This document shows positions 10,899-41,379 of a DNA stretch of 64,000 nucleotides, piece by piece. The notes beneath the pieces were generated by a model, which saw only the letters and a program-made list of their open reading frames with translations, ran no database searches and was not told the origin of the DNA. The position numbers were made by a program, and so were the translations under genes. The stretch is from an uncultured Planctomycetales bacterium. Lineage in GTDB: Bacteria; Omnitrophota; Gorgyraeia; Zapsychrales; Fredricksoniimonadaceae. The stretch is taken from positions 99,552 through 163,551 of the forward strand of contig CAZOXU010000001.1 of assembly GCA_964583975.1 (NCBI GenBank), given 5' to 3'. The first letter of the stretch is position 1. Every line of letters begins with the position of its first letter.

Positions 10899-11909
10899 TC
10901 AAAGATTACGCGTATTTCCAATAAAACGATCTGCATCACTAAAGCCTAAATGCGATGCAGGCCTTACCATTTCAGCGCAACGGTTAAAAATTTTTGCTAG
11001 TAAAGAACGCCCCCATAAGCCTGGCATACCCCACGAAGAAGCTTCTTTACGAATAAGCCCGCTTAACTGTTGAAATTGCGAAACTTCCAACCATCCTTTG
11101 GCATTGGCTTGGTCCAAAAGGTCGATGGCATAATCAGGTAAACGATAAACCATGGATATTGTTGCAGCTTTAATGATCTTAGCCGTACGCACAGCTTGGT
11201 CTTTTTGTTTTAAGGCATTTAACAGACTATCAATCTTACGAAAATACAAAGCATCACCAAAAACCAATTGTCCACTACCAATATAGCCAGTATATTTCTT
11301 TCTCTTCCACCAAGACCGACGCAAATTCATCAATTGAAAACCTTTTTCATCCATAAAAGCATCAACATCACGAAATAAAGCTTGGCCCTTATATAACGGG
11401 GCAAATTCAACCTCTAGTTCCACCCCACAAAGCAAATCTAAATTTGCTTTTGCACCTTTTAAGATATCCAATTCACTGCCTTGGGTATCAATTTTGATAA
11501 AATCAACCTCTTTAATACCGGCTGTAGCTAGGGCCTCATCCAAAGATTTGACTTTTTCTCGGCTAAATTCAATCTCTTGTATGGTTTCATACCTTTGATC
11601 ATCGGGAAAATCCTTTAATAAAGCCATATTGGGTGGATAAATAGAAGATTTACCCTGATCACGAGAGATATAAAAACGTAAATCTTGGCTAGAATGATAA
11701 AGGGCGTAGGGTAAATAAGTTATATGAGCGTCAGATTTTAATTTAATGAATTCTCGTTCATCCGGTTCAAAGGCAATCACATGGCAATGATTCAACAATT
11801 GCTTCCAATATAAAGAAATGCCGCCCATCGCTCCGACATCAATGTAATGCAGCACAATCTTCGAGTCACAAAACTCATCAAAAAAGTTCTTAAAAGTGGA
11901 TTTTCCCAT
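10899..11909 (-). CDS. FkbM-family methyltransferase
   Basis: 'IDVGAMGG' and 'FIKIDTQGSELDIL' (FkbM domain). Confidence 0.7.
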   Translation of the reverse strand: MGKSTFKNFFDEFCDSKIVLHYIDVGAMGGISLYWKQLLNHCHVIAFEPDEREFIKLKSDAHITYLPYALYHSSQDLRFYISRDQGKSSIYPPNMALLKDFPDDQRYETIQEIEFSREKVKSLDEALATAGIKEVDFIKIDTQGSELDILKGAKANLDLLCGVELEVEFAPLYKGQALFRDVDAFMDEKGFQLMNLRRSWWKRKKYTGYIGSGQLVFGDALYFRKIDSLLNALKQKDQAVRTAKIIKAATISMVYRLPDYAIDLLDQANAKGWLEVSQFQQLSGLIRKEASSWGMPGLWGRSLLAKIFNRCAEMVRPASHLGFSDADRFIGNTRNL

Positions 11910-12652
11910 TATAAAACAATCTTTCCATTGGTCACCGTTAGATTGATAGAGTATGGAATATCAGTTTTCTCTAACGTAAAAGATCCCCCGGCAGCTATTA
12001 ATATGGGTAATGCACCTGCAATATCCCACAACATAATACCTTTTTCACAATACACTTCTGCTCTAGCACAGCTAACATAACTTAAAGATAAAGCCGCAGA
12101 GCCGAGCCAGCGTAATTTTTGATAGGCTTGAACATCTTTCTTAAATTGTTCGAAGAACGCGGTTGAATAGTTGGTATTCAATGCAAAACCTGTGAGCAAC
12201 ATCGCTCTATCTTTATGGGTAACATCACTAACCTTAATGGGAGCGTCATTAAGCCATGCGCCTTTGCCTACTAGGCCTGAGAATAATTCTTCGTTTCTAG
12301 GTGAATACACAGCTCCTAAAACCGGTTGATCTTCCTCCCATAAACCAATAGAAACACCATACATCGGAATTCCACGATAATAATTAATAGTGCCATCCAA
12401 AGGATCAACAATCCAACGAAGACCATCGGATTTACCTGAGATCAAACCTTCCTCTTCAGATAAAATAGGATAATTAGTCTGTTTTAATTTTTCTAAAATG
12501 AATGATTCAGACATTTTGTCGGCTTTTAATTTAAGATCATGATGCTGCCACTGGTCAATTTTCTTAAAATCTTTTGGAGCATTAGCTAAAAGAGTCCCTG
12601 CTTCTCGTACTGTATTTTTAACTAGTTCTAAAAGGCTTTGCAAATCTGCCAT
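11909..12652 (-). CDS. Inositol-monophosphatase family phosphatase, candidate 3'(2'),5'-bisphosphate nucleotidase (CysQ-like)
   Basis: IMPase motifs 'LSEEEG', 'WIVDPLDGTINY' and 'WDIAGALPILIAAGG'. Its context with ATP sulfurylase, APS kinase and a sulfotransferase suggests removal of the sulfotransferase by-product PAP. Confidence 0.75.
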   Translation of the reverse strand: MADLQSLLELVKNTVREAGTLLANAPKDFKKIDQWQHHDLKLKADKMSESFILEKLKQTNYPILSEEEGLISGKSDGLRWIVDPLDGTINYYRGIPMYGVSIGLWEEDQPVLGAVYSPRNEELFSGLVGKGAWLNDAPIKVSDVTHKDRAMLLTGFALNTNYSTAFFEQFKKDVQAYQKLRWLGSAALSLSYVSCARAEVYCEKGIMLWDIAGALPILIAAGGSFTLEKTDIPYSINLTVTNGKIVL

Positions 12653-13572
12653 TACCGTAATCCTAACTCTTGGAAACCCTGCAATAAGTTCTCAGCTGCT
12701 TCCAATTCCATTCGTTGACGACATTCATGGGTTAATGAGCCCACATGGGGTGTTAATAACACTTGAGGGCATGATAACAAAGGTCCCGAATATGGCTCAT
12801 CGACAAATGTATCAATCCATGCCCCGGCAATTTTATTTTGATTTAATGCCTGTAACAGGGCCTGCTCGTTAACCACTCCGCCCCGAGCCACATTTAGAAT
12901 AATAGCGCTGGGCTTAATTAAAGAAAATTCGTTGGCGCCTATGATTTCCTGTTGCCCACTTGCATGAATGGAAATAATATCAGCTAAAGGCAAGGCTTCT
13001 TTGATAGACACATATTTATAATCTGGATGGGAATTCTTAACATGTGGATCAACAACAAGGATTTTAGCTTTAAATGCTTTAAGAATCTCAGCAACTCTTA
13101 AGCCTATTCTGCCACAACCGATAATAACTACAGTTTTACCTTCTAATTGGTTTCCTAAAATCTTATTCCAAGCTCCTTTATGTAGCTGATCATTCATTTG
13201 AGGAATTTTCCTTAATAAAGACAACATGGCACCAATGGTCAATTCGGCGACAGCATTGGTTGGAGCATCAGGGGTAGAGAAAAATTTAATCCCCTGGGCT
13301 TGAGCTGCCTGAACATCCACATTAGAAATACCAGCCCCACAACGGGAAATGACTTTTAAGCGGGATTTTTCTAAAACTTCTTTGTCTAATATTTCCAATC
13401 CAGCAATCAAACCATCAAAATCTGGGAGTAAATTCAGCGATTCTTGGCGGGTAAGTTTTCTTTTGAAAGGATTTAAAATAACTTCAAACCCTGCTGCTTC
13501 TAAAGTCTTGATGGGCGTAGGATCACTTTCACCAAATGTGGAGGTAGAGATTAAAACTTTCCCTTTAGGCAT
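12652..13572 (-). CDS. D-isomer-specific 2-hydroxyacid dehydrogenase (PGDH/GyaR-like)
   Basis: 'VVIIGCGRIGLRVAEIL', 'ILNVARGGVVNEQAL' and 'HVGS'. Start set at the internal ATG 13570-13572; the track ORF extends to 13644. Confidence 0.8.
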   Translation of the reverse strand: MPKGKVLISTSTFGESDPTPIKTLEAAGFEVILNPFKRKLTRQESLNLLPDFDGLIAGLEILDKEVLEKSRLKVISRCGAGISNVDVQAAQAQGIKFFSTPDAPTNAVAELTIGAMLSLLRKIPQMNDQLHKGAWNKILGNQLEGKTVVIIGCGRIGLRVAEILKAFKAKILVVDPHVKNSHPDYKYVSIKEALPLADIISIHASGQQEIIGANEFSLIKPSAIILNVARGGVVNEQALLQALNQNKIAGAWIDTFVDEPYSGPLLSCPQVLLTPHVGSLTHECRQRMELEAAENLLQGFQELGLR

Positions 13573-13579
13573 ATATTGA

Positions 13580-15145
13580 TTATTTGTTCGAACCAGCGGC
13601 AGAAATACCTTCTGATTTTTGCGCGGGGGCAGAATCAGGAGCACCGGGTTGAATCATATATTCCGTCAGAAAGATTTCTCTCAATTCATTGAAAATACGG
13701 TCGCCTTCCTCATCGAAGATTTCAGCTCTTTTAATCTTAGGCCAATAGGATTTGGGCATTTTACAATACAAAACAAATGTCCTTCGCATTCCTTGAATTT
13801 CCTTTTTAGAAAGCTGAGGCATATCCAATGGAGCATCCACATTGATCGAACCAAAAACCGTATCTTCTTTAATGTATCCTCTTTTGACACATTCCTTCTG
13901 CAACGGAGTGCCGTGAAAAGGAGCAAAAACCGAACAGTTGGTTGAATCGCTCACTAAAAGTCGATTTAATTCAATGGTATCAAAGATTAGCTCTCTTGTT
14001 TCGTCTGGAAATCCAATCATATTATTAACCGTTAAAGGAACCTGATATTTCTCCAATACCTTCGAAGCATCGACGAATTTCTGATTATCAAATGTCTTCT
14101 TAAGGATTTTCCTTCTAAAATCGATATTTCCATGTTCTAAACCTAAAGAGGCTCTGTGCACGCCAGCTTCTTTCAGTCTTTTCATTCTATGATCAGTGAT
14201 CAATTCTGCACGTATTTGCATCCAGAAAGGAATTTTAAATTCACTGTACATATCGACAAATTCGTCAAACTCCTGGTCTGAACCGACTAACAAGTTATCG
14301 GAGGTGAAATAAACATACTCAGCACCCCATTGTTTGATCAAGGTCCTAAGCTCTTTGCGTAAAACATCATTACTTTTCTTTCTAAAAAATTGAAAAGTAT
14401 CATCTTTATACATTTTTAATGACGAAGGCGAATTACAAAAGGTACATAGGTATGGGCACCCACGGGTGGTTTCTACAGGAATGGTCCTATAGACCTTACC
14501 AGCCATAGGTCGATAAAAACGTTCGATAGGAAAAAGGCTAAAATCTGGAATAGGTAAGGTATTGATATCAACCGGTGGTCTTAATTTATTCTTTCTAACC
14601 TTGCCGCCGTTTTCTCCTCTAAAACACAGATTGTCGATATCATCCAAACTTTCACCCTTGGCCAAGCGCTTACAGGAATCTATTAAAGCCCCTTCTCCTT
14701 CACCTGAACAAATGAAGCTTATATTCTTGTTTCTAAATACGATTTCTGGAGCAAATGTAGGAAACACGCCGCCTGCAATGATAGGAACCTTGATTCCATC
14801 AAGAGCTCTAAGCATATCCAAAGAATTCGCATAGGTGCATTCTAAGATGGAGATAATAATGATATCTGGATTAAATGATCTAACCTTTTCTAGCAGATCA
14901 TCTTCCATTCGTGTTGTTTTGACTTTAATACCTCGTTCAGCCCAATCAAAGGGACGAACTTGTAAATTTTGCTTTTTGGCATCATCTGAACTTAAGGTCA
15001 TTGGATCAGCATAAAGTGTGGAATCAAAAAGATCGACTTCAAATTCATTTTGACGCAATAAAGCTGTAAAAAGTCCAATGCTAATAGGGGGTGGATTCAA
15101 TAAAGTTCCATTGGGGTAAAGAAGCAGTACTTTCGTTTTCTTCAT
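13580..15145 (-). CDS. B12-binding radical SAM enzyme (class B; likely a methyltransferase or other radical modification enzyme)
   Basis: N-terminal cobalamin-binding-like domain ('KVLLLYPNG...IIIISI'). Radical SAM 'TTRGCPYLCTFCNS' (CxxxCxxC). Start set at the ATG 15143-15145. Confidence 0.8.
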   Translation of the reverse strand: MKKTKVLLLYPNGTLLNPPPISIGLFTALLRQNEFEVDLFDSTLYADPMTLSSDDAKKQNLQVRPFDWAERGIKVKTTRMEDDLLEKVRSFNPDIIIISILECTYANSLDMLRALDGIKVPIIAGGVFPTFAPEIVFRNKNISFICSGEGEGALIDSCKRLAKGESLDDIDNLCFRGENGGKVRKNKLRPPVDINTLPIPDFSLFPIERFYRPMAGKVYRTIPVETTRGCPYLCTFCNSPSSLKMYKDDTFQFFRKKSNDVLRKELRTLIKQWGAEYVYFTSDNLLVGSDQEFDEFVDMYSEFKIPFWMQIRAELITDHRMKRLKEAGVHRASLGLEHGNIDFRRKILKKTFDNQKFVDASKVLEKYQVPLTVNNMIGFPDETRELIFDTIELNRLLVSDSTNCSVFAPFHGTPLQKECVKRGYIKEDTVFGSINVDAPLDMPQLSKKEIQGMRRTFVLYCKMPKSYWPKIKRAEIFDEEGDRIFNELREIFLTEYMIQPGAPDSAPAQKSEGISAAGSNK

Positions 15146-15219
15146 ATGGTCTCCTAGGATTTTGAATGGCAATATTATGAATTTAATTCTTTGAATAAAC
15201 AAGCCAAATTTTTGCCATA

Positions 15220-17860: not shown

Positions 17861-18618
17861 TTCTTAATTAACTTTAATCCCTCTCTACATTGATCTCCTA
17901 ATAAAAGAAAATCAACACTGTAAGCGATAAACCTAAAGCCTTTTTTAATTTTATCTTTAACCATACGAGTGTCTGTTGGGACACAATGAATACCTGCAGT
18001 TACACCCTTTTCCTTGGCTTTCAACATAATCCTCTTTAAAGCTGCGATTAATTTGGGGTTTTCAAACTCGCCGGCAATTCCCATCGATCCAGAAAGATCA
18101 TAAAGTCCAACTAGAAAGCCATCAATTCCTTGCACAGCAAAAATTTTATCGAGATTTTCCACAGCTTCGATATGTTCGATTTGAACAATAACGACGCTTT
18201 CGTTCTTGACCCATCGTTTATATTCATTAAATGTAGTGCCATACCCTTGAGCTCGTGAAAGGCCGATGCCTCTAGTTCCTTCTGGCGGATATTTAACAGC
18301 GTTAACAGCTTTTTGAGCTTCCTGAGCCGTGTTCACCATGGGAACGATGACCCCCGTGGCCCCCGCATCCATCACTCTTTTAATTAAGGTAGGATTATTA
18401 TCCCCGACTCGTACCAAAGCTGGGATACCACATAAATCAATGGTTTGAATAAGTTTCATGGCATGCTGGACGGTTAAAGCAGAGTGTTCCATATCCACCG
18501 CCAACCAATCAAAACCTGCTTTAGCCATAATTTCAGCAATGCAAGTATCGGTCATGGTAATCCATGATCCAATGGTCAGTTGATTTTTCTTAAGTTTTTG
18601 TTTGAGTGAAGCTTTCAT
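17857..18618 (-). CDS. HpcH/HpaI-family class II (pyruvate-dependent) aldolase
   Basis: 'LTIGSWITMTDTCIAEIMAKAGFDWLAVDMEHSA' is a typical HpaI/RhmA-type TIM-barrel start. It contains 'VRV' and 'IEHIEAVEN'. Confidence 0.75.
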   Translation of the reverse strand: MKASLKQKLKKNQLTIGSWITMTDTCIAEIMAKAGFDWLAVDMEHSALTVQHAMKLIQTIDLCGIPALVRVGDNNPTLIKRVMDAGATGVIVPMVNTAQEAQKAVNAVKYPPEGTRGIGLSRAQGYGTTFNEYKRWVKNESVVIVQIEHIEAVENLDKIFAVQGIDGFLVGLYDLSGSMGIAGEFENPKLIAALKRIMLKAKEKGVTAGIHCVPTDTRMVKDKIKKGFRFIAYSVDFLLLGDQCREGLKLIKK

Positions 18619-20513
18619 CGGATACTCACAGATTTATCTTCGATGGCTCCTGAAGGAAGATATCCCTGCCCTTTCTTAAGATTTGAATTTAATAAAAAGA
18701 CCTTTAAATTTTCTTCTGACGGTTGTGTAAAATATTCATTCAAGACTTGTTGGGCCATCTGTTCAAAACCAAGTTTATCTTGGGCATTCATCGTTTCGAT
18801 CCAACGAATCTGATTTTTCAATTCCAATGGTGCAACTACTGGCTTTAAAGCATATCCTTTTAGATGAAATGGATCATGATAAATCGCATTATCTGGAATA
18901 ACACGTATCACTGGGACCGCCATCATCATGGCTTCTAAAATAGCAATTGATCCACCAGTTGTTACAACAGCATGTGTCAGAGTCAAACTTTCCTGAATCG
19001 GCCGTGGCTGATCAAATTCCCAATGCGAAAGATTCAGCGTTTCAAGGAATCGTAAAATTCGATCCTTTGATAGTAACGGATGCATTCTAACAACCACTTT
19101 ATACTCGTTGCTATCTTGCAAAGCTGCTTTTAACTTTGTAAATAATTCAAAAGCCAAATCATAGCCAAATGTCAATGGTAGCAAAAGCATTTTCTTAGCA
19201 TCAGAAACCCCACTAGATCGGCGTATTGTCTTATAAACTGCCGCAAAACGCAAGTTGGATCCCATGACTATGCGCTCTTGAGGAAATCTTGCTTCGATAT
19301 GTAATTGTCTGTATTTAGGACCAGAACATATAATCTGATCTGGCAAAGGATGATCTTTCCACTCTCCATCTGCGAGATGATAGGTCAGTTGATTGCCGAA
19401 AAATGTTGTGTGTTGGAATCCTATGATTTTAGAATCTGGATAATATTGGCGGCACGCCAAGATAAAAGGATTCTCAGAAGCATTACATTCAAATGGATAG
19501 TAGAAAGCATCGACTTCGAATCCTCTTTCACTTAATCGTTTCAGGGTGGGTACACACAAATTAAGAATGGATAGGTGAACGTTGAATCCTGCCTTCTTTA
19601 ACACCTCATTAAAAATAGGACTCACATCCAGACCTGCGATTTGGACATTAGTGATAACACGATTAAATCCCTGATAACTGCTCTTAAGTACTCCCAAATA
19701 ATCTGAAAGTTTCAGATATTGTTCAGGCATCACTAATTTCAGATTTTGCGCTTTTAATTTCTGGATGATAACGCTTAAGGGTGATTTTAGATTAAAAAAT
19801 GTCGGAAGAAGCAAAACTTCATACTGTTTGTCCTCTAACCAGGAAGCAAGCTCTCCAAAATTTCGATCATTGTATTTCCCAGAAGCACTAAATGTATCTT
19901 CAGTTATCCAGCTTCGAAGAACCACTCTCTTAGATGCCTCGGTCTTACTTTTCAAGGACATTTCTAGATTATTTGACACAGCCAGTTTATTGCGAAGATT
20001 AATCCGAATAAAATTAAGAATTTGAGCAAGGTAATAAAACTGATGCTGGATTGGCTCAAGCAGTCTTTTGAATAGACTTGTTCGCCATTTGATATCTAGA
20101 TTTAAAGAATGACCATATTCCACAATACACTTAGACAAAACCATGCTATCGGTAATGAAAACAATGTCGCTTTGGGATTGCGCGATAATTTTCTTGGCAC
20201 AGATCAAATAAAGAATATTCTGGGTCAAAGGCGTAGCGGTCGTGCTTTTGGTAGAAACTTGATTGGCCCACCACTCCAACGAATGATTGGCCGTATTAAC
20301 TCGATGATACAACTTAAGTAGATCTTCTTTATACTCTTGGAAGGTTGTATCTAACATTTCCCCCAGAGTTCGAATTTCTCCTGGTATCTGGGATTTTAAT
20401 TGAACCAATCTTTCCCAATCATTAGATAAATACCAGCACGTAACGTCCTTACCCATAAATTTAGGGAGAAGTCCTGATAAATTAAGATGATCTATTACGG
20501 TAATTCTCTTCAT
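18615..20513 (-). CDS. Large conserved hypothetical protein, possibly a GT-B-like or capsule-type transferase
   Basis: 632 aa with no sharp motif. The C-terminal 'HAVVTTGGSIAILEAMMMAVPVI' resembles a GT-B C-domain. Confidence 0.4.
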   Translation of the reverse strand: MKRITVIDHLNLSGLLPKFMGKDVTCWYLSNDWERLVQLKSQIPGEIRTLGEMLDTTFQEYKEDLLKLYHRVNTANHSLEWWANQVSTKSTTATPLTQNILYLICAKKIIAQSQSDIVFITDSMVLSKCIVEYGHSLNLDIKWRTSLFKRLLEPIQHQFYYLAQILNFIRINLRNKLAVSNNLEMSLKSKTEASKRVVLRSWITEDTFSASGKYNDRNFGELASWLEDKQYEVLLLPTFFNLKSPLSVIIQKLKAQNLKLVMPEQYLKLSDYLGVLKSSYQGFNRVITNVQIAGLDVSPIFNEVLKKAGFNVHLSILNLCVPTLKRLSERGFEVDAFYYPFECNASENPFILACRQYYPDSKIIGFQHTTFFGNQLTYHLADGEWKDHPLPDQIICSGPKYRQLHIEARFPQERIVMGSNLRFAAVYKTIRRSSGVSDAKKMLLLPLTFGYDLAFELFTKLKAALQDSNEYKVVVRMHPLLSKDRILRFLETLNLSHWEFDQPRPIQESLTLTHAVVTTGGSIAILEAMMMAVPVIRVIPDNAIYHDPFHLKGYALKPVVAPLELKNQIRWIETMNAQDKLGFEQMAQQVLNEYFTQPSEENLKVFLLNSNLKKGQGYLPSGAIEDKSVSIR

Positions 20514-20517
20514 AGAT

Positions 20518-27269: not shown

Positions 27270-29483
27270 TTATTCTTGGAATATTTCCTTGCCCGCATCA
27301 ATTTGGTTGATGATCAATTCTGATAAATCTTTACGCATAAACCATTCCGGAGGCAGATTTTTATCCATCAACATCTTTCGTCCTTGCGTTCCACTGATGG
27401 AAAGAATATCTTCTTGTTTATGGTCGCATGTCTCTACGTAACTTTCGCATTTGCGGCAATAATTGATTTCATTAAAGAAAATTGGTTCAATTCCAATATC
27501 TCCCAAGCTTTCAAATAATTGACGAACGCTATCTTTCTGATAGTACCCCTCGATCCCAGAATGATCGCGTCCCACCACAAAATGGCTGCAGCCATAATTC
27601 TTACGGCAAATCGCTGTAAATACTGCTTCTCTAGGGCCCGCATAGCGAGGGTAATTTAGCCAGGCTGCAAGCAAAACTTTATGAGCCGGATAATATTTGC
27701 TAATAATAATTTCATAGCTTTTTAGAATGATTTCAGAGAGATAATCGCCCTTCTTCTTTGGTCCAGACAAAGGGTGAATGAAAATGCCATCACAATGGTA
27801 TTTCTCGATGGCTGTCTTCTGGATGTGTTCGTGAACCCGGTGGGCTACATTGCGTGTATGAAAACCAATAATTCTCGACCAACCTTTATGCTCAAATATT
27901 TTTCGGACCTGCCTAGGCGTCATTTCAAACTGTTTGTTTTGAGAAGGCAGCCTTTTAATTAAAGTAATCTCTCCACCCAAAAAATGATTAGGTCGTTTTA
28001 AAATATCTTCAACACCAGGATGTTTAGAATCATTCGTACCAAATAACTGGCTGGTCAATTGTTGCAAATCATAGGTATATATATCTTTAATATCCAAGAT
28101 GGCATATACCAATCCATCATTCTTAAAACACAGAGCAACTTTCTGGCCAATACTTAATTGCTCAGCATTTTTCTGATCAATTTGTAAAACTATGGGCATG
28201 GGCCAGATGACACCCGTAGGAAGTTTAAAATCCTTCAATACCCCATCTAACTCTTCCTTGCTCATAAAGCCTTTAAGCGGAGAAAATGCTCCAATGGCAA
28301 TCTGCTCGGCATTAATCAAATCTTTTTCTTCGACTACAATCTTCTTGTATGCATTAATTAGCTCTAAATCAGGACTATCTTCATAGCGATGAATTAACTC
28401 TCCACCGTGAGGCTTAATCAAAAAAGAATGGTCGTCACTATCTAAATTCTCTAGAAAACCATTGGGTCCCTGACAATACTCATGGAATTGTTGCATCACA
28501 CGTGAAACCATGCTGGCGCATTCTACCGGATAGGAACCAATTGCTGTTTCCGCAGCCAAAACCAAACCATCGGCACCATCTACCAAGGTATTAAAAATAT
28601 CATTAACTTCAGCTCGAGTTGGATTAGACATAGTGATCATGGATTCCAATAAATTGGTAGCTACAAACATTTCCACATTAGCTTGCTTTGCTCTTCTAAT
28701 TATTTCTTTTTGCACCCTAGGGATTTGTTCGATCGGTACCTGCCTGGACATGTCTCCTCGATCCAACAAAAGGGCATGGCTACGACCTGCAATGGCTTCT
28801 AAATTCTTAATACCCATCAGTGATTCAATTTTAGAAATAATATAGGTCTGAGGAGCAACGTGCTTCTTTAGCTCATCGATATCTTCAGCTTTATTAGCAA
28901 AGGACAATGCCACATGTTTAATTCCCATCTTTTTGCCAATAGCAAATGCCTGGATATCTTTTTCTGTTAATGCAGGCAGGTCAATTTCACGATCTACACT
29001 GACAGCTTTATTACGTCCAATAAAGCCGCCGGTCAAAACCTTAATCACCAAACCATTTTGGTCCTTAGCAATCACCTTGACCAAAACAGAATTAAAATCA
29101 ATGCTGACAATGTCTCCGACTTCTATTTTGTCAACGCAATCTAAAGGATACAAATTAAATGAACTACCGCTTCCCTCAACTGCTTGTCTTGGTATTTTGA
29201 TGATTTGATTTTCTTCCAACAGGATTTTAATATCAAGGAAGTCTCCTGTTCTAATCTGTGCGCCTTCGCTGTCTAAACACACAGGGACCTTGGTCCTGGA
29301 CTGAATAAACTTAATCACTTCTGGAAGATCTTTAATCTTAGTATGCGAAAGATTGATCCGAAAAAGACTGACCCCCACATCAGTTAATCGCGCAATGACA
29401 CGATCATTCATTGATGCAGGACCTAAAGTGCATAATATTTTTTTCGGCACACTCATATTGAAGATATTCTTTCCTTTAAGCAC
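27270..29483 (-). CDS. Pyruvate kinase catalytic domain fused to ATP sulfurylase (sulfate adenylyltransferase)
   Basis: PK N-terminal part: 'KILCTLGPAS', 'RINLSHT', 'IISKIES', 'LLDRGDM', 'ATNLLESMITMSNPTRAEVNDIFN'. ATP sulfurylase C-terminal part: 'LIKPHGGELI', 'GFHTRNVAHRVHE', 'VVGRDHSGIEGYY'. Confidence 0.8.
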   Translation of the reverse strand: MLKGKNIFNMSVPKKILCTLGPASMNDRVIARLTDVGVSLFRINLSHTKIKDLPEVIKFIQSRTKVPVCLDSEGAQIRTGDFLDIKILLEENQIIKIPRQAVEGSGSSFNLYPLDCVDKIEVGDIVSIDFNSVLVKVIAKDQNGLVIKVLTGGFIGRNKAVSVDREIDLPALTEKDIQAFAIGKKMGIKHVALSFANKAEDIDELKKHVAPQTYIISKIESLMGIKNLEAIAGRSHALLLDRGDMSRQVPIEQIPRVQKEIIRRAKQANVEMFVATNLLESMITMSNPTRAEVNDIFNTLVDGADGLVLAAETAIGSYPVECASMVSRVMQQFHEYCQGPNGFLENLDSDDHSFLIKPHGGELIHRYEDSPDLELINAYKKIVVEEKDLINAEQIAIGAFSPLKGFMSKEELDGVLKDFKLPTGVIWPMPIVLQIDQKNAEQLSIGQKVALCFKNDGLVYAILDIKDIYTYDLQQLTSQLFGTNDSKHPGVEDILKRPNHFLGGEITLIKRLPSQNKQFEMTPRQVRKIFEHKGWSRIIGFHTRNVAHRVHEHIQKTAIEKYHCDGIFIHPLSGPKKKGDYLSEIILKSYEIIISKYYPAHKVLLAAWLNYPRYAGPREAVFTAICRKNYGCSHFVVGRDHSGIEGYYQKDSVRQLFESLGDIGIEPIFFNEINYCRKCESYVETCDHKQEDILSISGTQGRKMLMDKNLPPEWFMRKDLSELIINQIDAGKEIFQE

Positions 29484-31053
29484 CCGTAAAGTGATCTGTT
29501 GCTAAATGTCCTGTTGCTCGATTAATCAAAAACCAATTGCCATTAAAATTCGTGGTGGGATGCTCGAACCAGACAACCGCAGCCTCATTCATCGAATCTC
29601 CAATCTTTTTGATCAAATCATCACCATGAATCGTAGAAATACCATCAGGAATATTCAAAGGATAATTGTTAAACACATGCTCAGTTCCCTTATCCGTAAA
29701 AATTCGTAAATTAATGGTCTTATCTGGATTTGTTCGAGCTCCACCTGCAGTCGCTAAGGCATAAATACTTCGAAATTCCTTAAATAAAGGCGCCATTTTT
29801 AAACAGCGATAAGATTTAGGTAGGCCACAGGAATCATTATGGTAGCCAAAAGAATATTGGGTATGAACCTGATCAGCAAAGCTCTCTCCCCGGCGATAAT
29901 ATAAATGCAGATAACATGGAGGTTTTTGTTCAAACTCATTTTGATCGCGCTGAAAATCGACCACAAAATAAACACCGCCTTTGATCTGTTTTCCCTCAAA
30001 GACCTTAGCCAAATCAAAACCCAGCTCTTCATCACTTAATGTAACAAATTTCTCTCCTAACAATTCACCAGACTCTCGATACCCCTTGATCAAGAAGGAT
30101 CGGGTTTGAAAACCAATTTCTTCTTCATTCACATTAATCAGTGGAGCATTAAGTTCAAAATCTGGTACATAAAAAGCAGTGACACAAGATTGTACGGTTT
30201 TCTCCTTTGATGGAATATGTCGAATGTTCTTCATATGGCCTGAACAGTTATCATGCCAAAGAGTTGTTGGATCGCCACTCTCATCATGCACGATACAAAA
30301 ACCCATTGATCCTTTAATAGGCCCTTGGCTTTGGGCTCTTCTAAAAGCACCCTTGGCCCCCTCAGTCTGAAGAACTTGGTAGGGATCAGCAAAGTTACAA
30401 TAATAGGCTAGCTGCTGCCCTGGAATAAATGCACGGTAGCAAAATTCATCACGTTTGACATAAGGCTTCAAAAGAACAGGTATCGAATGAATACCCGAAA
30501 TCGTACCTTTGGCCGTATTGTTGAGAAACATAAAAAAACGAAATTCATTACCTGGGGTTTTAAGCCGAGGATGAAAGGCTTCTAACATCACAATTCCCTG
30601 CTTTGGTAAGGCGTTCTGGTCAGCCTCCTGGGTAAAGTTCTTAAGATATTTAACTTCATTAGGGGCCAAAAGATATTGTTTAGACCAAAAACACTGCTCA
30701 CCTACCAAGATAGACAAACGAATGAGGATAGGATCACGAAGGCCATAGTTACGTTGCAAAAAGTTAAAAATCAAAATATCTGTCATGCCTCTATGATAGG
30801 GAACATGAACCGAGGCTCGAGGAACCGAAACATCCGGAACAATTTGTTCAGGCGTCTTCTTACCATAATAAATATTAAATAACTCAGGCAATATTTTGGA
30901 GGCGGCAACGCTCTTGGCTGCAGAGTGTTCTTTTAAATAATATTGCTCGGTAAGGGTTGGATTATACCCAGGGCAGGCCTTGAAAAACTTGACCGCTAAC
31001 TTCTCAGCATTGCTCTTTCCTATAATCCTTGAAACCATTTCGAATTTTTGCAT
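29476..31053 (-). CDS. Hypothetical protein (525 aa), no recognisable motif
   Basis: Long uninterrupted ORF, co-directional, with an 8-nt overlap with the upstream gene. Cys/His-rich and probably soluble. Confidence 0.5.
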   Translation of the reverse strand: MQKFEMVSRIIGKSNAEKLAVKFFKACPGYNPTLTEQYYLKEHSAAKSVAASKILPELFNIYYGKKTPEQIVPDVSVPRASVHVPYHRGMTDILIFNFLQRNYGLRDPILIRLSILVGEQCFWSKQYLLAPNEVKYLKNFTQEADQNALPKQGIVMLEAFHPRLKTPGNEFRFFMFLNNTAKGTISGIHSIPVLLKPYVKRDEFCYRAFIPGQQLAYYCNFADPYQVLQTEGAKGAFRRAQSQGPIKGSMGFCIVHDESGDPTTLWHDNCSGHMKNIRHIPSKEKTVQSCVTAFYVPDFELNAPLINVNEEEIGFQTRSFLIKGYRESGELLGEKFVTLSDEELGFDLAKVFEGKQIKGGVYFVVDFQRDQNEFEQKPPCYLHLYYRRGESFADQVHTQYSFGYHNDSCGLPKSYRCLKMAPLFKEFRSIYALATAGGARTNPDKTINLRIFTDKGTEHVFNNYPLNIPDGISTIHGDDLIKKIGDSMNEAAVVWFEHPTTNFNGNWFLINRATGHLATDHFTGA

Positions 31054-31064: not shown

Positions 31065-31931
31065 TTAGATACTTGATTGAAATTCATGGACCCGCTTTTT
31101 CATTCTAAAAACTTCTCCAGGATATTTAAGCCATTTAATATTCCCTCCAAGAGGGCCCGCCATCACAGAATACACTAAAGGACTTTTAAGTTCAGGCACC
31201 TTGGTGAATCGCACTGTATAGCGCGCATAATCTTTTTGGCCAACAAGTTCTGGAGCCATATACGCATCACTTTGAGGATCAGAGGAAATAGGCTCAAGCT
31301 TCCCCCAATACAAAATACGAATATGATTAAAGCCTTCTGCTAAAGCAACTTTTACAATTTCAGGAACACTGATAATGTCAAAGTACACAAGTCCCTGGCC
31401 CGCATTTTTATGATGGCACTTATCCAAATCAGAAATCGTCCCTTCTTGAATGCAGCCTATAAAAGTCATGATAAAACTGATATTAATATGTTTTAAAACC
31501 TTCTTTAGTTGTTCGAGGGGCTCAGGCATATGGTGGATCGAATGTCTTTCATAGCCATAATCATAATTTCGAGTAAATTCATACTTAGTAAAATCTGCAT
31601 GCACCCACTTGGCTTGAGGAAAACGTTCACGAGCAGCAGCAACACCCTTGTCAGAAACTTCAATTCCGGTATAGTCGCTCACATCAATAATACCCTTACT
31701 CTTTAATGCATTAAATCCCTGCCCCATAGCTGAACCAATCTCAACTATACTTTTCTTTTGAACAGGTTTTGTAACCTCATAACGCCAAGCACGATTTGGT
31801 CGTTCGAAATCATCATCAAAAGGCAGATGGATCCAGTCCCATTGCACTTGACCGTATTTGCCATAGGCATCAAAGGTCCATACTTGACCCAAATTCTGTT
31901 CATAATATTTTTCTTTATGATTCATAATCAC
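31065..31931 (-). CDS. Class I SAM-dependent methyltransferase
   Basis: 'IVEIGSAMGQGFNAL' motif I. Confidence 0.6.
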   Translation of the reverse strand: MIMNHKEKYYEQNLGQVWTFDAYGKYGQVQWDWIHLPFDDDFERPNRAWRYEVTKPVQKKSIVEIGSAMGQGFNALKSKGIIDVSDYTGIEVSDKGVAAARERFPQAKWVHADFTKYEFTRNYDYGYERHSIHHMPEPLEQLKKVLKHINISFIMTFIGCIQEGTISDLDKCHHKNAGQGLVYFDIISVPEIVKVALAEGFNHIRILYWGKLEPISSDPQSDAYMAPELVGQKDYARYTVRFTKVPELKSPLVYSVMAGPLGGNIKWLKYPGEVFRMKKRVHEFQSSI

Positions 31932-31940
31932 CTTTCAATC

Positions 31941-32468
31941 TTACTTAGCCTTAAAGGCCTTTTTTCTTTCGCGCAATTGATCCATATAATCTTTAGCCCG
32001 TCCGGAATCTTCCATCGATGGCGACCATGGAGCAACCACGGTATCTCTGTCTCGATCAAAAGGGCCCTTGGTTGTCTCGTGAAAAACGCAAGTATCGGAA
32101 TCAATCAAAACCGTATGGTAAAACTCACCGTCCATTCGGTAATAAAAACGTCGACCTGAACGATATTCTCCCATATTAACTACGTCCTTAATTTCACCAT
32201 GATTGTCAAAAATAATAATGTCAGCGGCACCTTCAATAATATGAATAGATTCGGGCTTACCAAGATGCTTATGCGGTCTCACATAGGTGTCTCTAAAATG
32301 AACAATAAACATTTCATGCAAATCTGAATTGGGATCTTCATGCATACATAATCGACTGCGAACAGTTTTAGCGACGTGAGCCTTTGCTATCAACACCCCT
32401 ATATCTTTTTGATCAACCTTAACGATCGGCTTGTCAGCATAAAATATACAATCCGTTATTTCTTTCAT
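31941..32468 (-). CDS. Cupin-fold protein (WbuC-like)
   Basis: 'CMHEDPNSDLHEMFIVHFRDTYVRPHKH...ESIHIIEGAADIIIFD' cupin His/Glu pattern. Small (175 aa) and located inside a polysaccharide locus. Confidence 0.45.
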   Translation of the reverse strand: MKEITDCIFYADKPIVKVDQKDIGVLIAKAHVAKTVRSRLCMHEDPNSDLHEMFIVHFRDTYVRPHKHLGKPESIHIIEGAADIIIFDNHGEIKDVVNMGEYRSGRRFYYRMDGEFYHTVLIDSDTCVFHETTKGPFDRDRDTVVAPWSPSMEDSGRAKDYMDQLRERKKAFKAK

Positions 32469-32519
32469 AAAACTCCTTTTAAAAAAACCATTTATCTACG
32501 CCTTTTCGCTGATAGCGAT

Positions 32520-33776
32520 CTACACTTGATTTATAGACGAATTAAAGGCATTTTTCGATTCATTTAAATCTTGTAAATATTGATATTTTTCCAAAAACAA
32601 TGCCCCTATTCTGGAATAATTATGCGGGCCGTGCACACCATTTGTAAAAGGGAAATCTCCCCAGAATTGCGACTGTAACTCTTCTTGTTCTTCGGTAGTT
32701 TTCCATTGACCCTTTAAACGTTCTTCCATTTCTAAGACTACATCACGAATCTCTTCAGGAGAGTTTTTGATCACCTCTAATCCTTGATCTTCAAACATCT
32801 TGGTCTGTACACCATATCTGATATTTTCATTTAACATTTCTTTAAAACTCAAAAGTCTGCCATCTTTCTTGTTTCTCAAAAGTTTGAGAATGCTTAAGAA
32901 TTGATCTGACCAGGTAAAGAGAAAACCAACGGGAATAACATTGATATAAACAACCGGTTTTCGGAAAAGTCTGGCCACAGCTTCAATACCGCCCTCTCCG
33001 ACAAAGAAATGACACTTGGAAATTAAATAGATATCAGCAAAATCACTTCTAAAAGAGCTGTTGGCATAATCAATGACTTGCGGATGAACCAACGGAAACT
33101 TCTCTTCAACAACTCGCCCCATACGAATGATGTAATAACCTCGAGCTATCAACTCTTGAGCTGCCAATACAAAATCTGCAACAGGAAAATTACGATAATG
33201 ATGATAGCTCCAATCTCGGCCAGGGCTATGCTGACTTAAATACAAGCCATCGCGTCCTTGAATACAAACAAACGGCGTTCCTTTGGGAATGCCCATGCAA
33301 CGCAATAAGGTCTCACCCTGCTCTTGTTCGGAAGGAGTAAAAGTAACCTGAGGTGGAGTTTTATACGTTAAAGAAAAAATATCCCTGCTCTGAAAGGTGC
33401 GCCACTTATGAAGATGTGCTTTTCCACCAGGAACTTTTATATTGATTCGAAAAACCCAATAGGCCAAATTTGATACAGGTAAAACTCGACTCCATAACTT
33501 CACCATCTGCTTATTGACCTTGTTGGGACGATTAGGAAAGAAAATATTGATGGCTTGTGGCTGATGCATACCCATTTTTCTTTCTAAAACATAGGTATCT
33601 AACTCTCCAGCTGCATGTCCAATGCGATCTTTGATAGGAATAAGCCGCACCAAAACAAATGGACGGAGAATTCGCATCAACACAACACAAGGCAAGGCTA
33701 AAAACAAGACTGGAATTTTAGGCACTACGACTGATACTAACCATTGAAATGAATATTTAGGTGGAACACTCGACAC
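32520..33776 (-). CDS. Conserved protein of unknown function, paralog of 24318..25898 (TIGR04372-like putative glycosyltransferase)
   Basis: 'VIDYANSSFRSDFADIYLISKCHFFVGEGG' and 'GLEVIKNSPEEIRDVVLEM' are shared with 24318..25898. It lies immediately downstream of an FkbM methyltransferase. Confidence 0.45.
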   Translation of the reverse strand: MSSVPPKYSFQWLVSVVVPKIPVLFLALPCVVLMRILRPFVLVRLIPIKDRIGHAAGELDTYVLERKMGMHQPQAINIFFPNRPNKVNKQMVKLWSRVLPVSNLAYWVFRINIKVPGGKAHLHKWRTFQSRDIFSLTYKTPPQVTFTPSEQEQGETLLRCMGIPKGTPFVCIQGRDGLYLSQHSPGRDWSYHHYRNFPVADFVLAAQELIARGYYIIRMGRVVEEKFPLVHPQVIDYANSSFRSDFADIYLISKCHFFVGEGGIEAVARLFRKPVVYINVIPVGFLFTWSDQFLSILKLLRNKKDGRLLSFKEMLNENIRYGVQTKMFEDQGLEVIKNSPEEIRDVVLEMEERLKGQWKTTEEQEELQSQFWGDFPFTNGVHGPHNYSRIGALFLEKYQYLQDLNESKNAFNSSINQV

Positions 33777-33787
33777 AATGACGCTCC

Positions 33788-34774
33788 TTAATCGGGATTC
33801 AACTCCAATGATTGATTGAACTCGTGTAATCCCTTCATATCTTTGCCAAAAATGGCATGGTAAGTTTCATGATGCTTCTTTAAGGATTGGCCTGGCTGCC
33901 ATTTCAATGAATAAAAAAGTTTATGAAGACCAATATCCATGAATGAATACAATTGGGTACCTTTGAGACTATTGAAATTGACCCCATGTTTCTTTCGAGC
34001 CTCCAATAAAACATCGACAGCCACATCACTGGCTGAATTTAATAGACAAAAAGCAGCATATTTTAAAGCTTTAATAGCAGCGCTCTGGTTTTTCTTAAAA
34101 GCAGAACGAAAAAGATAATCTTTGCGCTTCATCCAGATCGCATCGCCATCAAGCATGACTCCGTATTGGCCATGCACATTGACAAATTCATTTAAAGGAT
34201 GGCCTTGGCCTTTATAACTTAAGTTCATCAAAAAGAAATCGTGCTGCAGCATAAACTCATGGATGGTTGAAAACATAGGCATGCCCTCAAACACATAATC
34301 AAAGCTGACCTCGCAACGAACACCCATTACATTATTTTTTAACTGAGATAATCCACCATTTAGAATTTGAAATTCAGTTCCTTCGGTGTCTAATTTTAAG
34401 AAATCAAGTTCAATTTTATTCTTCTGACAGAAATCATCGATCGTGGTCATTGGTACTCGTTCTTTAGAAACCACCTGGGTCTCCTTTTGTTTTTCTCCAA
34501 CAAAGGTAAATCGATCTTTATATCGCTTGCAGCTGGTACTCATGGCTCGGTTATGAAAGAAATTAATCTCTAACTCTCCCGCCTCTTGACCTAAAGCTTG
34601 ACCATAAATAAAGATTTCTTTAGAACGCGCCTTGTATTTTTGTTTAAGCCTTTTGACCTCGATGGAATCCGGCTCAAACAAGTAATAGCCCAACTCACCT
34701 TTAAAAGGTTTCCAATTGGGATGCAATCCATAACGTCCGCCTGCATCAATAACCGTTGTTACAATGTTTTTCAT
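33788..34774 (-). CDS. FkbM-family methyltransferase
   Basis: 'VIDAGGRYG' and 'FLKLDTEGTEFQIL'. Confidence 0.7.
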   Translation of the reverse strand: MKNIVTTVIDAGGRYGLHPNWKPFKGELGYYLFEPDSIEVKRLKQKYKARSKEIFIYGQALGQEAGELEINFFHNRAMSTSCKRYKDRFTFVGEKQKETQVVSKERVPMTTIDDFCQKNKIELDFLKLDTEGTEFQILNGGLSQLKNNVMGVRCEVSFDYVFEGMPMFSTIHEFMLQHDFFLMNLSYKGQGHPLNEFVNVHGQYGVMLDGDAIWMKRKDYLFRSAFKKNQSAAIKALKYAAFCLLNSASDVAVDVLLEARKKHGVNFNSLKGTQLYSFMDIGLHKLFYSLKWQPGQSLKKHHETYHAIFGKDMKGLHEFNQSLELNPD

Positions 34775-34780
34775 ATTTTT

Positions 34781-35503
34781 CTACCAAGGAATTGGACTGC
34801 CATCATAGTTATAAAATACGCCGTTTTTCTCCGGAGTAAATGCGCTAATAATATTTCGCATCGATTGTATGCTATGCTCCACGGTTATGTCTGCCCTGTT
34901 CCCTACCCTTTCTGTCTTTACAAATCCTGGATGCATCACAATGACGCTAATACCCATTGGCGTATAATCAAACGCCAAACTTTGAGTAACAGCATTTAAA
35001 GCTGCTTTTGAAGAGCGATAAATATAAGTTCCCCCACGCACATGATGCGGCAATTTTCCTCGTTCAGCCAAAGATCCAGCTCGGCTGGATATAAAAACTA
35101 TCTTTTTTTCACGACTACGTTTGACTAAATCAAAAAACATCTCAGTAAATTTAATCGTCGAAAAAAGATTCGTATGCATCACTTCAGTCCATCTTTGAAT
35201 ATCAAGGTGACCAAAGGTAGCTTTCTCATCCTCCGGTCCTCGAATTGCCGCGTTATTCAAAAGAACATCAATACTTTCATCTTTGATCTGATTTCTCACC
35301 TGCTCTACGGCCTTGATATCAGTGATATCCAAACGAAACAAGTGCAGATCACCTTTTAATGACTTAAGCTCACCAGCCAACTCTTCTTTGCGATAGGTTC
35401 CATAAACGCGACATCCATCATTTAGATACTGCCGCGCAAACTCTAATCCAAGTCCACTATTAGCACCAGTTATAAAGATATTTGACTTCGCAACATTCTT
35501 CAT
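34781..35503 (-). CDS. Short-chain dehydrogenase/reductase (SDR)
   Basis: 'IFITGANSGLGLEFARQY', 'NNAA', 'YRSSKAALN'. Confidence 0.8.
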   Translation of the reverse strand: MKNVAKSNIFITGANSGLGLEFARQYLNDGCRVYGTYRKEELAGELKSLKGDLHLFRLDITDIKAVEQVRNQIKDESIDVLLNNAAIRGPEDEKATFGHLDIQRWTEVMHTNLFSTIKFTEMFFDLVKRSREKKIVFISSRAGSLAERGKLPHHVRGGTYIYRSSKAALNAVTQSLAFDYTPMGISVIVMHPGFVKTERVGNRADITVEHSIQSMRNIISAFTPEKNGVFYNYDGSPIPW

Positions 35504-36744: not shown

Positions 36745-36760
36745 CTAATCACCTTTCATT

Positions 36761-37957: not shown

Positions 37958-37993
37958 TTACTCCTCCTATATTCTTGTTAGACACCCTCATGA

Positions 37994-40164: not shown

Positions 40165-40183
40165 ATTTTTTGACTCCACTTTC

Positions 40184-40849
40184 TTATTCAAAATAAATAA
40201 ATTCATAATCACCGGTATAACCAAATTCTTTCGCTAACCATACCCAAGCCTCATTATCAAAAAACGCTTCAGCGGTTAACGCCCAACATTGCAAATTAAA
40301 TTGTTCTTGTTCATTGCGGTAACTTTCCACCATAAAAAACTTTTGCTTACCCAAGCGTTCAATTTCACCGAATGCCTTTTTTAAATCAAAAATACGTAAA
40401 TTGTGTAAACAGCCTAGTGAAATGACCAAATCAAAATATTTGTCTGGCCAGGGATAAGGAACATCTTGAGCTTTACGAATAGAAAGGCTCTTTTTTATTC
40501 CTTCAGGAGCATCAGCAATACCGTGTTTAGAAATATCAAAACCATGTAATTCCGCATTAGGAAGCAATTGCTTTAATTCATATAGCACATGCGCTTTACC
40601 ACAGCCAACATCCAAAATCTTACAACCATCTTTGAGATTATATTTCTTGATAAGCACTTCAGCGATAGGCTTCCATCGTCCATCATATTTGTAACCGCCA
40701 TAACCGTAACGGCGATCGCCATCCCAATAATCAGCTTCATACTCTTTGGCTTTGAGCATGCAATGGACCTTATCATCCACCATACGATCGAGATATTTTC
40801 TTGCTGTCTTCTTGTGCAACGGTGTAAAAACTTCAACAAAACTTCCCAT
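40184..40849 (-). CDS. Class I SAM-dependent methyltransferase
   Basis: 'ILDVGCGKAHVLYEL'. Confidence 0.65.
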   Translation of the reverse strand: MGSFVEVFTPLHKKTARKYLDRMVDDKVHCMLKAKEYEADYWDGDRRYGYGGYKYDGRWKPIAEVLIKKYNLKDGCKILDVGCGKAHVLYELKQLLPNAELHGFDISKHGIADAPEGIKKSLSIRKAQDVPYPWPDKYFDLVISLGCLHNLRIFDLKKAFGEIERLGKQKFFMVESYRNEQEQFNLQCWALTAEAFFDNEAWVWLAKEFGYTGDYEFIYFE

Positions 40850-40851
40850 AC

Positions 40852-41379
40852 TTACTGACTCCTTTTGATGGTTTTAATAAAATTTAAAAAATTGGCTAAA
40901 GAATCTGCCTCGGATTTAACACCCGTCTCAATGATCAAATCTGGATTCTCTGGCGGTTCATACGGGTTTTCTGTATCGACCCCAATAAAATTTCGAATTT
41001 CTCCAGCTAAAGCTTTTTTATACAGTCCTTTTACATCTCTTTGGATGACTTGCTCTAAAGTTGCCTTCACATAGATTTCTGCATATTGTCCTGCGAAGGT
41101 CTCTCTTAATTCCCTACGTATCTGACAATAAGGAGTAATCACAGAAACAAATATATAATCAAACTCCGCTAAACGTTTTCGACAAAGATCAGCAATAAAC
41201 CTGTTATTTTGAAGGATATCTTCTCTAGTGAAACCTAAGGCTCGTGGATATTGCGAGCGGATCTCATCTCCATCTAATAACAGAACCTTCTTTCCTTCAC
41301 CCTCCAAAACCTCTTTGGCCTTTCTTGCGATGGTTGTCTTGCCCGCTCCTGAAAGACCTGTAAACCAGAAAATTCTCAT
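40852..41379 (-). CDS. cysC: Adenylylsulfate (APS) kinase
   Basis: 'IFWFTGLSGAGKTTIA' P-loop and 175 aa length typical of CysC. Confidence 0.85.
   Translation of the reverse strand: MRIFWFTGLSGAGKTTIARKAKEVLEGEGKKVLLLDGDEIRSQYPRALGFTREDILQNNRFIADLCRKRLAEFDYIFVSVITPYCQIRRELRETFAGQYAEIYVKATLEQVIQRDVKGLYKKALAGEIRNFIGVDTENPYEPPENPDLIIETGVKSEADSLANFLNFIKTIKRSQ

Follow-up and report, generated by a model that had tools for sequence, protein, structure and literature searches.

The 64-kb window analysed here (64,000 nucleotides of contig CAZOXU010000001.1 from an uncultured Omnitrophota bacterium) belongs to a surface-glycan biosynthesis supercluster that spans 64 kb or more, and it probably contains a three-gene sulfation module. 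The module comprises a fusion of a pyruvate kinase (PK) core with an ATP sulfurylase (PK-Sat, 27270-29483), an adenosine 5'-phosphosulfate (APS) kinase (CysC, 40852-41379) and a sulfotransferase with tetratricopeptide repeats (TPR-sulfotransferase, 25900-27252). In our reading, to which we assign a probability of about 70%, the PK core regenerates ATP for the synthesis of 3'-phosphoadenosine 5'-phosphosulfate (PAPS), a phosphatase of the inositol monophosphatase (IMPase) family (11909-12652) stands outside the module, and CysQ, the phosphatase for the by-product 3'-phosphoadenosine 5'-phosphate (PAP), is encoded elsewhere in the genome. The analysis covered the window and comparison loci (L numbers) fetched from other genomes. 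The initial annotation of this DNA had described these four genes as a complete sulfate-activation and recycling system interleaved with sugar-modifying genes. The four open reading frames (ORFs) are located at the same coordinates on the minus strand and were assigned to the same families, and a same-strand, densely coding glycan block surrounds all of them. The activation and transfer part of that system is supported by a recurring three-gene association. The recycling part is not, as the IMPase-family protein is not a CysQ.

The sulfurylase part of PK-Sat scored above the curated NCBIfam cutoffs (TIGR00339, 338.5 vs. 322.95; NF003166, 409.1 vs. 387). A PUA_2 domain (amino acids 356-511; PF14306, 142 bits) lies between the PK barrel and the catalytic sulfurylase domain. 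The top matches in the PDB were the ATP sulfurylase of Methanothermococcus (8a8d, 318 bits) and bacterial pyruvate kinases (175 bits for the enzyme of M. tuberculosis). Sulfurylase motifs are present as FHTRNVAHRVHE, HRVH, GRDHSG and the cysteine cluster YCRKC...C.H. These features indicate an enzyme that would form APS and pyrophosphate from ATP and sulfate. The N-terminal ~340 residues cover the full A and B domains of pyruvate kinase, and the C-terminal regulatory domain is missing. The test for a full-length pyruvate kinase failed (TIGR01064, 264.2 vs. a cutoff of 306.4), with the barrel as the only match and no PK_C domain. In an alignment of 24 fusion sequences sharing 51-82% identity, the PK motifs RINLSH, D-x-EGAQIR, NKAV, SKIE, DRGD, ATNLLESM, PTRAE and AAETA were invariant or nearly so, as were the residues R42, N44, S46, D71, R78, K159, K218, E220, D244 and T276. 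They align with the M. tuberculosis PK and with a second bacterial PK. We take the conserved motifs to contact phosphoenolpyruvate (PEP), K+, Mg2+ and the nucleotide, as they do in pyruvate kinase. Conservation of this kind suggests that the phosphotransfer site is functional and argues against a decayed scaffold.

The APS kinase gene is located 11.4 kb upstream of PK-Sat. Its product passed the cutoff of the apsK equivalog-domain model (TIGR00455, 157.7 vs. 138.7 bits) and has the P-loop GLSGAGKTT, the LDGD motif in LLDGDEIR, the segment KGLYKKA.AGEI.NF.G and KGLYKKALAGEIRNFIGVD. The sequence thus indicates a kinase that would produce PAPS and ADP from APS. A substrate other than sulfate was considered for the kinase and the 'sulfurylase'. 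Cj1415 of Campylobacter, a CysC homologue in a capsule locus, is a kinase for cytidine diphosphoramidate in O-methyl-phosphoramidate decoration, and the window kinase carries QNNRF in place of the ENIRR that is usual in CysC. The score above the apsK cutoff and the partnership of the kinase with true Sat and sulfotransferases across genomes speak against such a substrate, and the other genes of the phosphoramidate pathway, for a GATase-type amidohydrolase and a glutamine kinase, are not in the window gene set. A Cj1415-like phosphoramidate pathway was rejected on these grounds, and a non-sulfate substrate in general is hardly to be expected.

The sulfotransferase gene begins 17 bp downstream of PK-Sat. 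Pfam detected TPR repeats at amino acids 45-96 and Sulfotransfer_1 (PF00685) at amino acids 271-425, with 37.2 bits vs. a gathering cutoff of 22. By what we take to be the definitions of the 5'-phosphosulfate-binding (5'-PSB), 3'-phosphate-binding (3'-PB) and C-terminal motifs, the 3'-PB motif with the catalytic histidine is clear (RDPRQGLISYVHY) and so is the C-terminal motif of the RxGxxGxWK type (RSGGVDEWKKDFT). Two profiles searched against all six-frame ORFs of at least 70 amino acids in the window matched this protein only, which confirms an earlier statement that a second canonical sulfotransferase is absent. The suggestion of more than one sulfation step found no supporting evidence in a window with a single sulfotransferase. 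Neither cysH nor sulfite-reductase genes were present among the window proteins in a Pfam-level annotation. Together with the 17-bp spacing, this absence argues for a dedicated sulfation module.

The PK-Sat architecture is widespread and unstudied. Among 5.8 billion protein clusters, more than 120 matched PK-Sat with an identity of at least 50%. They all share its three Pfam domains, and their sources name them merely "sulfate adenylyltransferase" or "pyruvate kinase". When a single genome was scanned for each GTDB species, ~506 PK-Sat-related stretches emerged, of which the best 80 were nearly all full length. The carriers belong to Omnitrophota, Planctomycetota, Elusimicrobia, Nitrospina, Deltaproteobacteria, Anaerolineae/Caldilineae, Acidimicrobiia, Gemmatimonadota and Verrucomicrobia and include the cultured Mesorhizobium, Sinorhizobium saheli, Ensifer and Methyloversatilis. 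A literature search found no paper on a natural fusion of PK and ATP sulfurylase. The activities are also linked by other gene forms. A single chain comprises APS kinase, PK and Sat (P0088), and a 4-kb metagenome contig (L083, 94-3770) encodes consecutively an unfused ATP sulfurylase, a separate PK-barrel-only protein, a 2-hydroxyacid dehydrogenase and an IMPase. The PK-barrel gene of this split form is divergent (DLPGNKIR, SKIET, DRGDLS).

The partners of PK-Sat were identified in 81 fetched loci, with the fusion gene called in 76. Genes were called by a simple longest-ORF procedure and the counts are approximate. BLAST detected an APS-kinase homologue within 10 kb of PK-Sat in 41 of the 81 loci, and CysC directly adjoins the fusion in 31 of 76. 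Iterated profiles, seeded with the window sulfotransferase domain and one Sulfotransfer_3 neighbour, found a sulfotransferase in 35 of 76 loci and an adjacent one in 29; relatives of the window sulfotransferase were present in 32 of 81 (iterated profile). Among 93 immediate neighbours, CysC excluded, Pfam recognised Sulfotransfer_1 (26), Sulfotransfer_3 (24), Na_H_Exchanger (10) and TauE (3). No other neighbours of PK-Sat are as common across phyla as sulfotransferase and APS kinase, which shows that their juxtaposition in the window goes beyond chance, and an Anaerolineales chromosome (L001) has PK-Sat, CysC and sulfotransferase consecutively. The window module appears to be a rearranged copy of this compact cassette. 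The association, found in dozens of unrelated genomes, bears out the proposal of a locus-dedicated PAPS supply: three genes recurring together across phyla point to a dedicated supply rather than housekeeping.

Housekeeping genes for sulfate assimilation that merely happen to be situated in a glycan locus are very unlikely. Many bacteria use Sat-type sulfurylases for assimilation, but the short distance between PK-Sat and sulfotransferase, the association across phyla and the missing reductive genes are at odds with this function here. The distribution in rhizobia is a further argument: PK-Sat occurs in Mesorhizobium and Sinorhizobium, and it is located on secondary replicons (megaplasmid or chromid) in Ensifer adhaerens (L102, 2.78-Mb plasmid) and Sinorhizobium chiapasense. 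Rhizobial sulfate activation is normally ascribed to CysDN or NodPQ. The rhizobial loci (L025, L034, L047, L056, L063, L067, L068, L077 and L102) share an arrangement of their own, with three genes of ~430, 280 and 350 amino acids, PK-Sat, CysC and a membrane protein of the Na+/H+-exchanger family, which is possibly a sulfate carrier. No recognisable sulfotransferase was adjacent to PK-Sat in this rhizobial set.

The proposed pathway would start with the sulfurylase domain of PK-Sat, which would activate sulfate with ATP to APS and pyrophosphate. The APS kinase would phosphorylate APS to PAPS and release ADP. We infer that the fused PK core regenerates ATP from this ADP and PEP; this would relieve the ADP inhibition of the kinase and pull the unfavourable pathway forward. 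With PAPS as donor, the TPR-sulfotransferase would then sulfate a sugar or glycan that the cluster produces. PAP would most likely be disposed of by a CysQ encoded elsewhere in the genome, and the IMPase-family gene would serve precursor synthesis in a separate, conserved dehydrogenase-phosphatase pair.

PK and PEP are added to in vitro PAPS systems so that the ATP which APS kinase uses is regenerated and ADP does not inhibit the reaction (PMC9885120). These cascades follow the same logic of ATP regeneration, but they are engineered mixtures of separate enzymes, whereas in PK-Sat the coupling would lie in a natural fusion. Eukaryotic ATP sulfurylases are fused to APS kinase (PAPS synthase), to APS reductase or, in stramenopiles and haptophytes, to pyrophosphatase, and these partners likewise remove a product or pass on an intermediate (PMC2275785). 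PK-Sat differs in that its partner, a PK core, would act on the ADP of the next step and not on pyrophosphate or APS. A PK fusion is absent from that survey of ATP sulfurylase fusions (PMC2275785). The conserved PK site, the ADP-inhibited APS kinase and the known 'pulling' fusions together make PEP-driven ATP regeneration beside the two steps that consume ATP the most economical mechanism.

The PK core may have another function. It could supply pyruvate, for example for an HpcH-type aldolase or for ulosonic-acid chemistry, phosphorylate another acceptor or be a scaffold for oligomerisation. The missing regulatory C-domain fits such a role, as do the HpcH aldolase genes near PK-Sat in the window, in L062 and in L012, and about a quarter of the comparison loci have neither CysC nor a sulfotransferase nearby. 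The catalytic, metal-binding and nucleotide-contact motifs, invariant across 24 diverse fusions, argue for catalysis and against a pure scaffold. The commonest partner of PK-Sat is the ADP-producing CysC, and a chain that unites CysC, PK and Sat exists. We consider a function of the PK core apart from PAPS-linked ATP rather unlikely. A broader generalisation of ATP regeneration is tentative and falls slightly short of even odds: PK-Sat would be a PEP-driven, self-recharging PAPS synthase that forms, with CysC and sulfotransferase, a portable cassette in ~500 species of at least 10 phylum-level groups.

Several observations weigh against the sulfation module and its ATP regeneration. The kinase gene is ~11 kb away from its partner genes, unlike in most comparison loci. 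The PF00685 model aligned with the sulfotransferase at model positions 92-251 only, which leaves its N-terminal half unaligned, and the 5'-PSB loop is atypical, with HRSASGY instead of P[KR]SGT. The window sulfurylase carries FHTRN and not the usual FQTRN as first motif; the glutamine is replaced by histidine in nearly all fusions, and the unfused Sat of L083 has FQTRN. About 14 of 50 full-length comparison loci are without CysC or sulfotransferase within 10 kb, and PK-Sat may have other uses besides sulfation. The role of the PK core is purely inferred, and it is only synteny across genomes that counters a housekeeping role.

The IMPase-family protein had been described as a CysQ/IMPase-family phosphatase. 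The superfamily was confirmed by the Pfam Inositol_P domain, and the identity as CysQ was not. The CysQ model TIGR01331 gave 90.7 bits, far under its cutoff of 228.8. The protein stayed under every equivalog cutoff, and three other models scored higher: FBPase/IMPase (120.8), HisN (112.8) and SuhB (107.1). The initial annotation had named a SuhB- or HisN-like phosphatase as part of what would speak against its reading, and the ranking of the models points to such an enzyme rather than to CysQ. The PDB matches were IMPase/SuhB proteins with 136 and 108 bits and CysQ with 45 bits. PAP phosphatases follow the motif rule DGT-K-[EG]-F. In the window protein this segment reads DGTINYY, and in its relatives the residues after DGT are INYS, MNYS, FNFV or LNFS, all of which fit DGT-x-N-[YF]. 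A gene directly after PK-Sat in an Omnitrophota locus (L014) served as positive control; with 279.4 bits for TIGR01331 and the motif DGTKEFI, it encodes a true CysQ. The window protein resembles CysQ, Hal2 and BPNT1 in its fold, which is that of the IMPase superfamily, and in two metal-binding motifs, DPxDGT and WD.A(A/G)G. It differs by failing the CysQ model, by DGTINY in place of DGTKEF, by its greater closeness to IMPase/SuhB and by other neighbours.

These neighbours were studied in fifteen metagenome loci with relatives of 30-52% identity. A homologue of the D-2-hydroxyacid dehydrogenase (52-58% identity) is encoded directly upstream of the IMPase relative in five of them (L082, L083, L084, L087 and L089). 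In nine loci, a GmhA-like SIS isomerase gene adjoins the IMPase relative or is located just upstream of the dehydrogenase. L082 and L087 are syntenic with the left end of the window, and L090-L095 have an unrelated arrangement of SIS, IMPase, DUF386 and epimerase genes. L083 is the sole informative locus that also has Sat and PK. Conversely, an iterated profile detected IMPase-family genes in only three of the 81 PK-Sat loci: L014, where the gene is the true cysQ, and L062 and L064, which are near-duplicates from Nitrospina. They are rarer there than generic glycan genes such as DegT and NeuB. The pair of dehydrogenase and IMPase was seen near Sat and PK only in L083 and in L062/L064. Of the four genes of the initial annotation, PK-Sat, CysC and sulfotransferase co-occur; the window type of IMPase is instead found beside dehydrogenase or SIS isomerase genes.

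The alternative of a PAPS economy with four parts was weighed against this evidence; here the IMPase-family protein would recycle the sulfotransferase by-product as PAP phosphatase. The protein is in the same superfamily as CysQ, and IMPase-type enzymes are often promiscuous. The gene order of L083, the IMPase relative three genes from PK-Sat in the Nitrospina loci and the true CysQ after PK-Sat in L014 are in its favour, the last demonstrating that PAP phosphatases can join the module. The model and PDB rankings and the DGTINY motif, in comparison to DGTKEF of the L014 control, speak against it. Relatives adjoin dehydrogenase and/or SIS isomerase genes, with PAPS genes in a single informative locus, and the family is limited to three PK-Sat loci. 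Recycling by this protein is unlikely. Failure of the CysQ model, affinity to IMPase/SuhB and different conserved neighbours therefore lead to the conclusion that it is not CysQ. Its most likely role is in the synthesis of glycan precursors, as a phosphatase for sugar phosphates or phospho-acids. The heptose-type pathway of the window is without a clear HAD-family GmhB, with one weak HAD-like ORF (44200-44841, E 0.005), and the dehydrogenase-IMPase pair may take the place of GmhB or form a hydroxy-acid substituent. The case calls for caution in annotation: an IMPase-family gene near sulfur genes is not automatically cysQ. A curated cutoff and a positive control from a related locus settle the question.

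Table 1. Positions of the discussed genes and domains within the window
Feature	Position	Strand	Evidence
IMPase-family phosphatase, doubtful module member	11909-12652	-	Pfam Inositol_P, E 7.7e-50
D-2-hydroxyacid dehydrogenase, outside the sulfation module	12652-13644	-	Pfam; conserved upstream partner of the IMPase-family gene
TIGR04372-family glycosyltransferase	24318-25898	-	NCBIfam, 225.6 bits vs. cutoff 45
TPR-sulfotransferase	25900-27252	-	Pfam TPR and Sulfotransfer_1; PAPS-binding motifs
Sulfotransferase domain, ~aa 190-430	25963-26685	-	Part of the sulfotransferase gene
N-terminal TPR region, ~aa 42-189	26686-27129	-	Part of the sulfotransferase gene
PK-Sat fusion (PK A and B domains, PUA_2, ATP sulfurylase)	27270-29483	-	Pfam, NCBIfam and PDB matches
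ATP-sulfurylase catalytic sub-domain, aa 518-725	27309-27932	-	PF01747, E 3e-73, 246 bits
PK barrel sub-domain, aa 15-322	28518-29441	-	Pfam PF00224, E 1.4e-63
Rare orphan protein, N-terminal helices followed by several beta-sandwich domains (TM1070/ASRT-like, CBM-like)	29476-31053	-	Predicted
Second TIGR04372-family member	32520-33776	-	NCBIfam, 226.5 bits vs. cutoff 45
APS kinase (CysC), APS to PAPS	40852-41379	-	Pfam APS_kinase (PF01583), E 4e-42

Two proteins of then unassigned function that flank the module genes (24318-25898 and 29476-31053) had been put forward as candidates for a novel sulfotransferase or an acceptor-binding partner. As sulfotransferases, both were rejected. The first is a TIGR04372 glycosyltransferase (Table 1), and a homologue of it was not found in any of the 81 PK-Sat loci. 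The second is predicted to be an all-beta protein of several sandwich domains without a sulfotransferase fold. Its family has 14 homologues in the 5.8 billion clusters, without signal peptide and always in glycan clusters of the nonulosonic-acid type; no PAPS genes were present within 10 kb of these homologues. The two proteins share no similarity, and a relationship as paralogues was also rejected.

A third candidate is a 681-amino-acid protein encoded at 57585-59630 on the minus strand. Its family flanks PK-Sat and CysC in L002, L011 and L012 and is fused to an APS kinase in L015. At least 253 'hypothetical' proteins without a Pfam domain belong to this family, usually encoded beside NeuB and a CMP-sugar synthetase. 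The AlphaFold2 model (pLDDT 87) has a GT-B fold nearest to TarL/TagF, the capsule polymerase Bcs3 and polysialyltransferase. A hidden sulfotransferase was rejected because of this fold, the other family contexts, which are NeuB/CMP-synthetase clusters without PAPS genes, and the canonical sulfotransferases that L011 and L015 have of their own. The modelled fold suggests that the protein is probably a CMP-sugar or TagF-like transferase, and it may be a nonulosonic-acid transferase or polymerase. A profile comparison of the family with the proteins at 18615-20513 and 24318-25898 showed no relationship. The fused form in L015 (12163-14379), from the metagenome-assembled genome (MAG) 'uncultured bacterium SRP200020_co3_325', is an ORF of 738 amino acids directly after PK-Sat. 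Its APS kinase comprises amino acids 6-174 and is fused to a part that matches the last two-thirds of the GT-B, TagF/TarL-like proteins of this family.

PAPS genes within capsule clusters are already known, and the new element is the PK fusion. The capsule cluster of Cobetia marina KMM 1449 has ~70 genes with cysN/C, cysD, cysQ, a sulfate permease and sulfotransferases (PMC11766843), and that of Vibrio sp. KMM 8419 appears similar (PMC11641403). The window resembles the Cobetia cluster as a large glycan cluster with its own genes for PAPS synthesis and a sulfotransferase. In Cobetia, one operon unites CysD and a CysN/CysC fusion, a GTP-coupled sulfurylase, with a true cysQ and the gene of a sulfate permease. 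The window encodes instead a Sat-type sulfurylase fused to a PK core and CysC ~11 kb off, and CysQ and a sulfate transporter or permease are absent from its gene set. Second, dedicated copies of sulfate activation that feed one sulfotransferase are also known from rhizobial NodP/NodQ with NodH and from Xanthomonas RaxP/RaxQ with RaxST. These systems differ from the window module in their CysDN-type sulfurylase without PK domain and in their targets, a lipo-chitooligosaccharide or a peptide.

Sulfated polysaccharides are usually deemed rare in bacteria, and a recent paper described them as made exclusively by cyanobacteria (PMC13390465, 2026). If the reading of the PK-Sat cassette is true, sulfated surface glycans are much commoner than the literature assumes. 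As a recognisable cassette across hundreds of species, the combination of sulfotransferase, PK-Sat and CysC would be a simple genomic marker for them. The enzymatic synthesis of heparin- and chondroitin-type glycans is limited by PAPS supply and ADP inhibition, and a fusion with built-in ATP regeneration would be a useful biocatalyst.

The window has ~58 genes, throughout on the minus strand, with 99.6% coding sequence and a G+C content of ~39%. The nearest named relatives of two of its proteins are from Omnitrophota MAGs. Both ends cut through the cluster, with a carbamoyltransferase truncated at 63980. The glycan genes include NeuB, the nonulosonic-acid synthase, and two CMP-sugar synthetase-like genes. 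A heptose set consists of a SIS isomerase, a bifunctional kinase/nucleotidyltransferase and epimerases. Further sugar genes encode three DegT aminotransferases, a split transketolase, RmlA and RmlB for a dTDP-sugar, a formyltransferase, an ATP-grasp enzyme and a carbamoyltransferase. More than 10 methyltransferases are encoded, including three of the FkbM type, a C-methyltransferase and a B12 radical-SAM enzyme. Transfer and export are represented by GT1, GT2 and TIGR04372 transferases, a Wzy-like protein and an ABC exporter.

Genes overlap at 33 of the 57 junctions, and the widest gap within 11909-41379 is 51 bp. Co-transcription of these tightly packed, co-directional genes is plausible. Scans for promoters and terminators over 10500-48900 yielded neither an enrichment nor a convincing boundary that would separate the parts of the sulfation module. 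The sole boundary-like site of the scan is at 10824-10861, within a 105-bp gap (10793-10899). It comprises a sigma-70-like promoter with 11 of 12 matches and an extended -10 TG, which overlaps a hairpin with a 12-bp stem that is followed by a T run on the minus strand. Plus-strand ORFs of 107-133 amino acids (e.g., 9387-9990, 31758-32159 and 34598-34999) are nested in minus-strand genes and are probably spurious.

Two arrangements outside the module recur, in whole or in part, elsewhere. At 41382-44841 on the minus strand, a transketolase is split into N- and C-terminal genes beside an APH-family kinase and a weak HAD-like ORF of 213 amino acids. The pair of APH-family kinase and HAD protein was seen again near PK-Sat in L066 and in L103, a syntenic Omnitrophota locus. 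The set may be responsible for a two-carbon branching or a phospho-sugar step. The HldE-like bifunctional enzyme at 48094-49626 (minus strand, 510 amino acids) has a cytidylyltransferase-like N-terminal domain (amino acids 32-123) and a C-terminal PfkB kinase domain (amino acids 197-488). HldE of E. coli has the opposite domain order. The reversed arrangement is shared with L103.

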